Notes under the pieces: generated by a model | Told to the model about the DNA's origin: nothing | Databases searched by the model: none | The model's input: the letters and a program-made list of their open reading frames with translations, nothing else | Part shown: positions 2,923-31,246 of the stretch, one piece after another | Position numbering within the stretch: position 1 is the stretch's first letter | How the letters are laid out: each line of letters opens with the position of its first letter | Translations under genes and position numbers: made by a program | NCBI RefSeq assembly: GCF_003334405.1 | Contig: NZ_QOWM01000010.1 | Strand: one strand, 5' to 3' | DNA from: Escherichia coli | Lineage (GTDB): Bacteria; Pseudomonadota; Gammaproteobacteria; Enterobacterales; Enterobacteriaceae | DNA: 64,000 bases

Positions 2923-3605
2923 GCTTCCTCCTGCAACTGCCCGTTCACCAGCCGTAAGCAGCGGTCGCAGCGTGCCGCCAGTTGCAGGTCGTGGGTCACC
3001 ATAATCAACGTGGTGCCATGTTCACGGTTGAGGGAAAACAGCAGGTCGGCAATTTTATCGCCCGTCTGGCGGTCAAGGTTGCCGGTGGGTTCGTCGGCAA
3101 ACAGCACATCAGGTCGACCATTAAAGGCTCGTGCCAGCGCCACTCGTTGCTGTTCACCGCCGGAAAGCTGTGCCGGAAGATGATCCAGACGTTTACCCAG
3201 CCCTAACTGTTCGAGCAACGCTTTCGCCCCGTTACGACTTTCCGCGCTACTCTCACCGCGCAGCAGAGCCGGAAGCTCGACGTTTTCCAGCGCGTTAAGG
3301 GTAGGAATTAACATAAATGACTGAAAAACAAAGCCGACGTGCTTCGCGCGCAACTTTGCCCGCGCTTCTTCGTCCATATTATGTAGCGGTTGTCCCACCA
3401 GACTCACTTCGCCACTGCTGCCGTCATCAAGCCCGGCGAGGATCGCCAGCAAGGTTGACTTACCCGATCCCGACTCGCCCACCAGTGCGATGGTCTCGCC
3501 ACGTTTGACAACCAGCTCAACTCCGGTGAGGATGGAGAGTTCATGCTCCCCCTGACCGACGGACTTCTTAAGATGATGAACTTCAACAATGTTTTCCGCT
3601 GGCAT
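2919..3605 (-). CDS. ybbA: ABC transporter ATP-binding protein, 228 aa
   Basis: ORF track 228 aa with Walker A GESGSGKST, ABC signature LSGGEQQR and Walker B DVLFADEP. Confidence 0.95.
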   Translation of the reverse strand: MPAENIVEVHHLKKSVGQGEHELSILTGVELVVKRGETIALVGESGSGKSTLLAILAGLDDGSSGEVSLVGQPLHNMDEEARAKLRAKHVGFVFQSFMLIPTLNALENVELPALLRGESSAESRNGAKALLEQLGLGKRLDHLPAQLSGGEQQRVALARAFNGRPDVLFADEPTGNLDRQTGDKIADLLFSLNREHGTTLIMVTHDLQLAARCDRCLRLVNGQLQEEA

Positions 3606-14469: not shown

Positions 14470-14760
<291 letters not shown>

Positions 14761-21807: not shown

Positions 21808-21896
21808 TATGTAGGCATGATAAGACGCGCCAGCGTCGCATCAGGCATCGAGAGCCAAATGCCAGATGCGGCGTGAATGCCTTATCTGGCCTACGA
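21808..21896. repeat. BIME/REP element (two inverted REP palindromes) between ybaL and gsk
   Basis: gtaggcatgataagacgcgccagcgtcgcatcaggcat ... gccagatgcggcgtgaatgccttatctggcctac read directly. Confidence 0.85.
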
Positions 21897-29314: not shown

Positions 29315-31246
29315 TCAAATGGGGCGGATACTTTCTTCATCCAGCTCCGCATCGAAGAACCGACGCAGGGTCTGAATATTATTATCCGCAATAATGGACT
29401 CGCGCGCCTGCGCAAGTTTTTCTTCGTATATCGCCTGACGCCACTCCAGCGGCGTACGCACCGCGGGATTATCATCTTCAACGATAGTCAGTTCAACCGT
29501 TGAACCTTTTAACATGCTCAACGCTTCAGCCAGTTTTTGCTGTGCACCGCGGTTGTTCAAATGCCGCTGAGAGGAGCGCAAATGCAGACATACTGCGTTG
29601 TCGCTCTCCTCTTTCCAGGCATTTAACGCCACCTGTTCGACCAGTTTTGGTAGCGAAAGTTGGCTCACCTGTGCCGCCCACGGGTCGCGCTCAATGGCTT
29701 CTGCCGCTAGCTTCGCCGCCAGTTCCGGCGTTTTTTCATGTTCCAGCGCTTTTTTCAGCGCCTTCGGCGTGGCGACCACTTCTTTTTGCTGCATCACCGG
29801 AGTGGTCGCCTTCCAGCGATACGCTTCTTTTTTGGCTGGCGCTTTTTCCAGCGCCGATGGCACCGGACGCGCCTGAACGCGATCGGTGACCGAAGCCAGT
29901 CTTTCCAGCGCAGCGTTATTCACCGGCCGCGCGCGGGTAGCGGCTGCCGGTTCACTCTTTTTTGCTTTGGTTGCTCCCTGCACGCGCTGCAACTGCTGGC
30001 GCGCCGCCAGCACCTGGCTGGTGGTTTCCGGGAGCGGTACAGTCGGTGCCTGCTGCGGCGCTGATTGCGGTTGCGGCGGCACCTGGGTTGGCGTCATTAC
30101 TGCCGTTGGCGCGACGGGTGCAAAGGACTGTCGTGGCACTTCTGGCTCAGGCAGCGGCATACGCGGATGGAATGCCAGCGCGCGCAGCAGCGTCATCTCA
30201 ACGCCCATGCGACGGTCCGGCGCATACGGTAATTCTTTGCGACCAATCAACAGCGTCTGATAGTAAAGCTGAATATCCGTCGGCGGTATGGTGCGCGCCA
30301 GTTCACGCATCCGCAGCTCGATGGCGGCCATGTCGTTGCCAAGTGCAGCAGGCGAAAGTTGTACCATCGCAATACGATGCAACAGGCCGAGCATTTCCAC
30401 CAGCAACGCTTCCCACTCGATACCACGGGCAGCGGCTTCATTAATCAGCGCCATTACGCGCTCGCCGTTGGCCTCGACCATCGCTTCAACCAGCGACAGC
30501 GCCTGATCGTCGTCAAGCGTACCCAGCATCGCACTGACCGCCTGGGTTGAAACCTGGCCGTCACCGCTGGCAATCGCCTGGTCGGTCAGACTTAAGGCAT
30601 CTCGCAGGCTGCCTTCAGCGGCGCGTGCCAGCAATTGCAGCGCCCGCGGCTCGTGAGCGATATGTTCTTCGTTGAGGATGTGCTCAAGCTGATGGCGAAT
30701 TTGCTCGACATCCAGCGCCTTGAGATGAAATTGCAGACAGCGTGACAAAATCGTCACCGGCAATTTCTGTGGATCGGTCGTCGCCAGCAGAAACTTAACG
30801 TGCTCCGGCGGCTCTTCAAGGGTTTTTAACAGTGCGTTAAAGCTGTGGCGCGACAGCATATGCACTTCGTCGATCAGATAAACTTTGAAACGACCACGCG
30901 CCGGAGCGTACTGGACGTTATCCAGCAGGTCGCGGGTATCTTCAACTTTGGTGCGCGAGGCGGCGTCGATTTCAATCAGATCGACAAAGCGCCCCTGCTC
31001 GATTTCACGACAGTTATCGCACACGCCGCACGGCGTCGCGGTAATGCCGGTTTCGCAGTTTAGCCCCTTCGCCAGCAGTCGGGCGATAGAGGTTTTTCCG
31101 ACGCCACGGGTGCCGGAAAAAAGATAAGCATGATGAATACGCCCTAACGACAAGCCGTTCGCCAGTGCGGTCAGCACATGTTCCTGGCCGACGACGTCAG
31201 CAAAGGTTTGTGGGCGCCATTTTCGGGCTAAGACCTGATAACTCAT
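29315..31246 (-). CDS. dnaX: DNA polymerase III subunits tau/gamma, 643 aa (tau)
   Basis: ORF track 643 aa; AAA+ clamp-loader motifs (GTRGVGKTS Walker A, zinc module CGVCDNC). Confidence 0.97.
   Translation of the reverse strand: MSYQVLARKWRPQTFADVVGQEHVLTALANGLSLGRIHHAYLFSGTRGVGKTSIARLLAKGLNCETGITATPCGVCDNCREIEQGRFVDLIEIDAASRTKVEDTRDLLDNVQYAPARGRFKVYLIDEVHMLSRHSFNALLKTLEEPPEHVKFLLATTDPQKLPVTILSRCLQFHLKALDVEQIRHQLEHILNEEHIAHEPRALQLLARAAEGSLRDALSLTDQAIASGDGQVSTQAVSAMLGTLDDDQALSLVEAMVEANGERVMALINEAAARGIEWEALLVEMLGLLHRIAMVQLSPAALGNDMAAIELRMRELARTIPPTDIQLYYQTLLIGRKELPYAPDRRMGVEMTLLRALAFHPRMPLPEPEVPRQSFAPVAPTAVMTPTQVPPQPQSAPQQAPTVPLPETTSQVLAARQQLQRVQGATKAKKSEPAAATRARPVNNAALERLASVTDRVQARPVPSALEKAPAKKEAYRWKATTPVMQQKEVVATPKALKKALEHEKTPELAAKLAAEAIERDPWAAQVSQLSLPKLVEQVALNAWKEESDNAVCLHLRSSQRHLNNRGAQQKLAEALSMLKGSTVELTIVEDDNPAVRTPLEWRQAIYEEKLAQARESIIADNNIQTLRRFFDAELDEESIRPI
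29957..29963 (-). other. Programmed -1 ribosomal frameshift site of dnaX (A AAA AAG), which yields the gamma subunit
   Basis: Minus strand reads GCAACCAAAGCAAAAAAGAGTGAA; the heptamer is in-frame at Lys429-Lys430 and the -1 frame reads AAA AAA GAG TGA (stop). Confidence 0.85.

Follow-up and report, generated by a model that had tools for sequence, protein, structure and literature searches.

The programmed −1 ribosomal frameshift cassette of dnaX in a stretch of Escherichia coli DNA

The dnaX reading frame on the minus strand of the window, by which we mean the whole 64,000-nt stretch of Escherichia coli DNA analysed here, raises the question of whether one gene gives two proteins through an intact −1 frameshift site. 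Read without interruption, the gene (29315..31246, minus strand; 643 codons and a stop) encodes tau, which has 643 amino acids and a mass of 71.1 kDa by script. A shorter product, gamma, lacks the C-terminal domains with which tau binds DnaB and the polymerase core. A preliminary description of this DNA had proposed that the signal for gamma is intact, and we followed it up by recounting the frame, folding the RNA and comparing the site with reference and related genomes. We conclude that the feature is almost certainly the programmed −1 ribosomal frameshift cassette of E. coli K-12 dnaX. This identification is based on an in-phase slippery heptamer, the GAG TGA that follows it in the −1 frame, an upstream AGGGAG, a downstream hairpin, a match to the Rfam family RF00382, identity to E. 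coli K-12 MG1655, conservation, covariation and the published literature.

The slippery heptamer and the two reading frames

Inside the 643-codon frame the minus strand around the frameshift site reads GTGCAGGGAGCAACCAAAGCAAAAAAGAGTGAACCGGCAGCCGCTACCCGCGCGCGGCCGGTGAATAAC, and at the site itself ...GCAGGGAGCAACCAAAGCAAAAAAGAGTGAACCGGCAGCCGCTACCCGCGCGCGGCCGGTGAAT... Recounting by script, we placed the heptamer A AAA AAG at 29957..29963 (minus strand), in the frame and at the residues, Lys429-Lys430, that had been proposed. The heptamer opens on the last base of codon 428 (GCA, Ala) and continues with AAA for Lys429 and AAG for Lys430, so that in the tau frame it has the X_XXY_YYZ phase. These codons, 429-430 of 643, place the site roughly two-thirds into the coding sequence, and a script run over the gene found it to be the only in-phase X_XXY_YYZ heptamer in dnaX.

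Across the site the zero frame translates as TKAKKSEPAA and the −1 frame as NQSKKE*. The −1 frame thus ends after a single codon, as had been predicted: its two codons, GAG TGA, occupy 29952..29957 (minus strand), with GAG (29957..29955) encoding Glu431 and TGA (29954..29952) serving as the gamma stop. The shifted product consists of the 430 residues shared with tau plus this one glutamate, and the script returned the anticipated length of 431 residues and a mass of 47.5 kDa. Its coding extent is 29952..31246 (minus strand), read as codons 1-430 in frame 0 and then as GAG and TGA after the −1 slip.

The heptamer by itself is not beyond chance expectation. The window has 20 copies of AAAAAAG, where shuffles give 13 ± 3, and we rejected heptamer frequency as evidence since the motif is no rarer than chance; phase and context carry the signal. 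The site stands out because the Rfam DnaX model gives a score of 96.8 bits (E = 5.8e-20) to the combination of heptamer, stop, hairpin and Shine-Dalgarno-like element.

Three copies of AAAAAAG lie on the dnaX coding strand, and the two others are out of phase. One, at 29833..29827 (minus strand), reads GCC AAA AAA GAA over Lys472-Lys473 and has the phase AAA AAA G, not X_XXY_YYZ; a −1 slip there would add a tail of 30 residues. Three nucleotides past this second A-run we predicted a hairpin (29824..29788, minus strand; −18.5 kcal/mol, z = −3.9) that none of 200 shuffles equalled. The third copy lies at 29755..29749. The second A-run varies even among Citrobacter species, and several enterobacteria encode Lys-Lys without A6. 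We rejected a second frameshift site at either of these copies, both being out of phase and not conserved. That 29788..29833 might act as a minor second pausing or frameshift site, giving a form of tau truncated 30 residues into the −1 frame, is very improbable, and P-site re-pairing at the second A-run would be imperfect.

The flanking stimulators and the extent of the cassette

A stem-loop had been expected immediately 3' of the heptamer on the minus strand. We found it at 29922..29951 (minus strand, running from 29951 to 29922) as ACCGGC-A-GCCGC-UACCC-GCG-C-GC-G-GCCGGU, with a minimum free energy (MFE) of −19.1 kcal/mol and a structure identical to that of the Rfam consensus. The hairpin has 11 base pairs, one A/G apposition and a bulged C. 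It begins 5 nt past the heptamer, with the first C-G pair at 6 nt, and the intervening AGUGA (29956..29952) doubles as the spacer between heptamer and hairpin.

Folding of the 57 nt from 29900 to 29956, the check put forward in the preliminary description, did return the hairpin within the MFE structure, though the energy was unremarkable against shuffles (z = +0.2). Restricting the fold to a 39-nt core gave z = −2.3, and 3 of 200 shuffles did equally well; the shuffles were made from the local, G+C-rich sequence. From these two values we take thermodynamics alone to be weak evidence for the hairpin. We therefore rejected folding energy on 29900..29956 (z = +0.2) as the deciding criterion and turned to the covariance model, reference identity and covariation. 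With the heptamer in frame and a stable hairpin downstream, neither of the two outcomes that were named as able to overturn the proposal was found.

Upstream of the heptamer we identified an internal Shine-Dalgarno-like AGGGAG at 29974..29979 (minus strand), with a spacer of 10 nt to the heptamer by script. It falls inside the RF00382 match and corresponds to the upstream frameshift stimulator. This third known stimulator was the sole omission from the preliminary description, which had drawn the feature at 29940..29963. That extent correctly takes in the heptamer, GAG TGA and the 5' arm of the hairpin, and it falls short of the full element, which occupies 29918..29982 (minus strand) as delimited both by Rfam RF00382 and by the RefSeq feature 'DnaX frameshifting element'.

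The cmscan match to RF00382 runs from 29982 to 29918 (minus strand) and covers model positions 1-65 of 65, at a bit score to be compared with a gathering score of 35 bits. The 65-nt sequence agrees with the RF00382 consensus at all positions, one consensus position being variable. The three signals (Shine-Dalgarno-like element, heptamer and hairpin) are present with the expected phase, spacing and fold. Compared with the E. coli dnaX element of RF00382, every feature is the same, including the heptamer, the 10-nt Shine-Dalgarno spacing, the 5-6-nt hairpin spacing, the 11-bp stem and GAG TGA; we found no difference, and the sequence is the type example itself.

Rfam models also matched elsewhere in the window. 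These matches comprise the sroB small RNA (RF00368; 16051..16134, minus strand, 82 bits), the 4.5S/SRP RNA ffs (RF00169; 46786..46882, minus strand, 68 bits) and three naRNA4 matches (RF02564) at 14575..14652, 14676..14753 and 21814..21891, found on both strands at 64-89 bits. We take the naRNA4 matches to be palindromic repeats of the REP/BIME type. When 24 kb of the window was used as a query, a median of 25 extra partial places per genome matched, which would be consistent with such repeats.

Conservation in E. coli and covariation among enterobacteria

Comparison with reference dnaX bore out the proposal. The gene is 100% identical to that of E. coli K-12 MG1655 and many other strains, as is its product to WP_000122013.1, 'DNA polymerase III subunit gamma/tau'; the MG1655 RefSeq record annotates the same element, as a 65-nt sequence_feature, at the corresponding place. 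Identity to MG1655 is also 100% over 24 kb (20000 to 44000), and the gene order matches, with apt, ybaN and priC on one side of dnaX and ybaB, recR and htpG on the other. Of 5426 complete E. coli genomes, 5425 contain the 91-nt region around the site, and in 5309 it is at least 99% identical.

Several records in this collection depart from the common pattern. One of the 5426 genomes labelled complete is without any dnaX match, and two carry dnaX on a record with a plasmid label. Because dnaX is regarded as essential, these cases look like problems of assembly or labelling. In the assembly of E. coli O157:H7 Z1833 (NZ_CP062705.1), dnaX carries a 60-nt in-frame deletion that shortens the coding sequence to 1872 nt, compared with 1932 nt. 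The deletion corresponds to about 29862..29921 (minus strand) of the window, lies directly after the 3' arm of the hairpin between direct repeats CCGGTG, and takes out 20 residues where the tau-specific region begins while leaving the frameshift cassette whole.

Among relatives we scanned one genome per species with the pattern AGGGAG-N10-AAAAAAGAGTGA. This pattern preselects AGGGAG, the heptamer and GAGTGA and is hence blind to the rate at which relatives lose them; only the hairpin was left unconstrained. The scan returned at least 120 loci. About 75 of the matches listed are Enterobacterales dnaX, in 59 distinct sequences, and when each of these 59 was folded alone, every one formed a hairpin at the same offset.

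In an alignment of 31 sequences, the E. coli structure paired 87% of cells, compared with 28-52% when the 3' partners were slid by 1-3 columns. Two-sided changes occur at four pairs of the stem. The basal pair changes from A-U to G-C in 10 sequences, one G-C pair becomes A-U in a Mixta species and another in Enterobacter ENT03, and a C-G pair becomes G-C in two sequences. Over the apex of the hairpin the tau peptide is variable and carries indels (AATRA, AASRA, APGRA, APGA and ARSA), and the basal stem is invariant. That the stem persists while the apex peptide varies argues for selection on the RNA. Part of the invariance may reflect protein constraint, since the basal stem overlaps conserved Glu-Pro-Ala and Arg-Pro codons.

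The elements of Enterobacter, Pantoea, Erwinia, Serratia, Mixta and Buttiauxella share with E. coli the same AGGGAG, 10-nt spacer, A AAA AAG and GAG TGA, as well as a basal stem, (A/G)CCGGC...GCCGG(U/C), at the same offset. The basal pair differs between the E. coli type, which has A-U, and the Pantoea/Erwinia type, which has G-C. The apical stem follows one of two registers by clade. In Escherichia, Citrobacter and Kosakonia it takes a form with a bulged C (GCCGC/GCG-C-GC) and a loop of 5 nt, whereas in Enterobacter, Pantoea, Erwinia, Serratia and Buttiauxella it is a continuous GCGC/GCGC, with loops of 3-8 nt in these other genera. We rejected a single consensus structure for all enterobacteria, as neither register pairs all sequences at columns 41-43; all of them share just the 6 bp at the base of the stem and the 2 bp that follow.

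Candidatus Pantoea persica (match at 3006..3033, minus strand) retains the Shine-Dalgarno-like element, the heptamer and GAG TGA and has a much shorter hairpin (GAGCCGGCAGCGUCGGCUAAC), with the tau peptide at the site shortened to SEPAASANSAL. This short hairpin may be a reduced stimulator in a symbiont genome.

The matches listed also include about 40 loci from Collinsella and a few scattered others. The Collinsella sequence, AAGGGAGAATCTGTGCCAAAAAAGAGTGAGAGCACGGG, is conserved across many genomes and consists of AAGGGAG, 5 nt and then GTG CCA AAA AAG AGT GAG... Reading this sequence, we take it to be probably the beginning of an unrelated gene, with its ribosome-binding site and a GTG codon that opens the peptide MPKKSES..., and we rejected these loci as chance fits to the pattern.

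The mechanism of the shift and other routes to gamma

We established the presence, phase, spacing and fold of the signals, their identity to the reference and their conservation from the sequences compared here, and we take the slip, its efficiency and its kinetics from the literature, in which gamma production by a ribosomal shift was established experimentally for the identical sequence (PMC5009743, PMC5389563, PMC7282821). In the proposed mechanism, the ribosome would arrive at A AAA AAG with tRNA-Lys on AAA in the P site and on AAG in the A site. The AGGGAG 10 nt upstream is a predicted pairing partner for the anti-Shine-Dalgarno end of 16S rRNA. At the mRNA entry channel, 5-6 nt downstream, the hairpin would hinder translocation. 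Both tRNA-Lys would then re-pair one base back, on AAA AAA, in about half or more of passages. After the slip GAG would be read, and the TGA stop would release gamma (431 aa); ribosomes that do not slip would go on to make tau (643 aa).

Published measurements on dnaX give each of these signals a role. Half of the ribosomes (50%) shift and terminate one codon later (PMC5009743), and efficiencies of 50-80% are quoted elsewhere (PMC5389563, PMC7282821). The hairpin stimulates the shift (PMC7282821), and in vitro the efficiency falls from 84% to 50% when AGGGAG is mutated, to 20% when the hairpin is deleted and to 2% when the heptamer is made non-slippery (PMC5389563). In the prevalent route the two tRNA-Lys slip during translocation hindered by the hairpin, and a slow single-tRNA route operates when aminoacyl-tRNA is limiting (PMC6771820). 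E. coli has a single tRNA-Lys (mnm5s2U34) to read both AAA and AAG, and this makes AAG prone to shifting (PMC5009743). We found no tRNA genes in the window.

Gamma could in principle arise one step earlier, through slippage of RNA polymerase on the A-run. Thermus thermophilus gamma arises by transcriptional slippage, and there the same gene likewise yields tau and a truncated gamma, at about 1:1 (PMC5009743); the heptamer does contain a homopolymer of six A (29963..29958). However, bacterial transcriptional slippage is described on runs of 9 A or T (PMC5009743), a length that the six A here fall short of. The T. thermophilus mechanism works at the level of RNA polymerase on a longer A-run (9), whereas the A6 of the window is accompanied by stimulators directed at the ribosome, namely a conserved hairpin and a Shine-Dalgarno-like element at fixed spacing. 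Transcriptional slippage is disfavoured further by the 60-84% frameshifting obtained when a defined dnaX mRNA is translated in vitro (PMC5389563, PMC7282821), and we consider it exceedingly improbable as the source of gamma in E. coli.

We give equally scant probability to the view that heptamer, stop and hairpin coincide without function and that any short DnaX is a proteolytic fragment of tau, on the model of Caulobacter crescentus, where a proteolytic gamma is known (PMC5009743). The abundance of AAAAAAG in the window and the unexceptional folding energy of the 57-nt stretch are what a coincidence would look like. Set against it are the Rfam E-value, the status of the site as the sole in-phase heptamer in the gene with a −1 stop one codon on, and the compensatory changes that preserve the stem across genera while the peptide varies. 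Published mutagenesis also speaks against coincidence, the identical sequence being the experimental model system. We therefore retain programmed ribosomal frameshifting as the origin of gamma.

As a ribosomal frameshift site, the dnaX cassette resembles those of IS911 and other IS3-family elements, IBV and HIV-1, which likewise combine an X_XXY_YYZ heptamer with a 3' structure. IS elements often have a 5' Shine-Dalgarno stimulator, as dnaX does (PMC5009743), and the IS911/IS3-family and viral sites share with dnaX a two-tRNA slippage coupled to translocation (PMC6771820). In contrast to dnaX, where the shift truncates the product after one codon at about 50%, the IS911/IS3-family and viral sites fuse two ORFs into a longer product at low efficiency.

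The site was already known in full: it is the exact sequence on which dnaX frameshifting was characterised, and our analysis adds nothing new to it. Its value lies in being a sanity check, in that one of the most thoroughly characterised recoding signals in biology was recovered from raw sequence. The dnaX element is the standard bacterial model of −1 frameshifting, and in E. coli it fixes the ratio of tau to gamma in the DNA polymerase III clamp loader.
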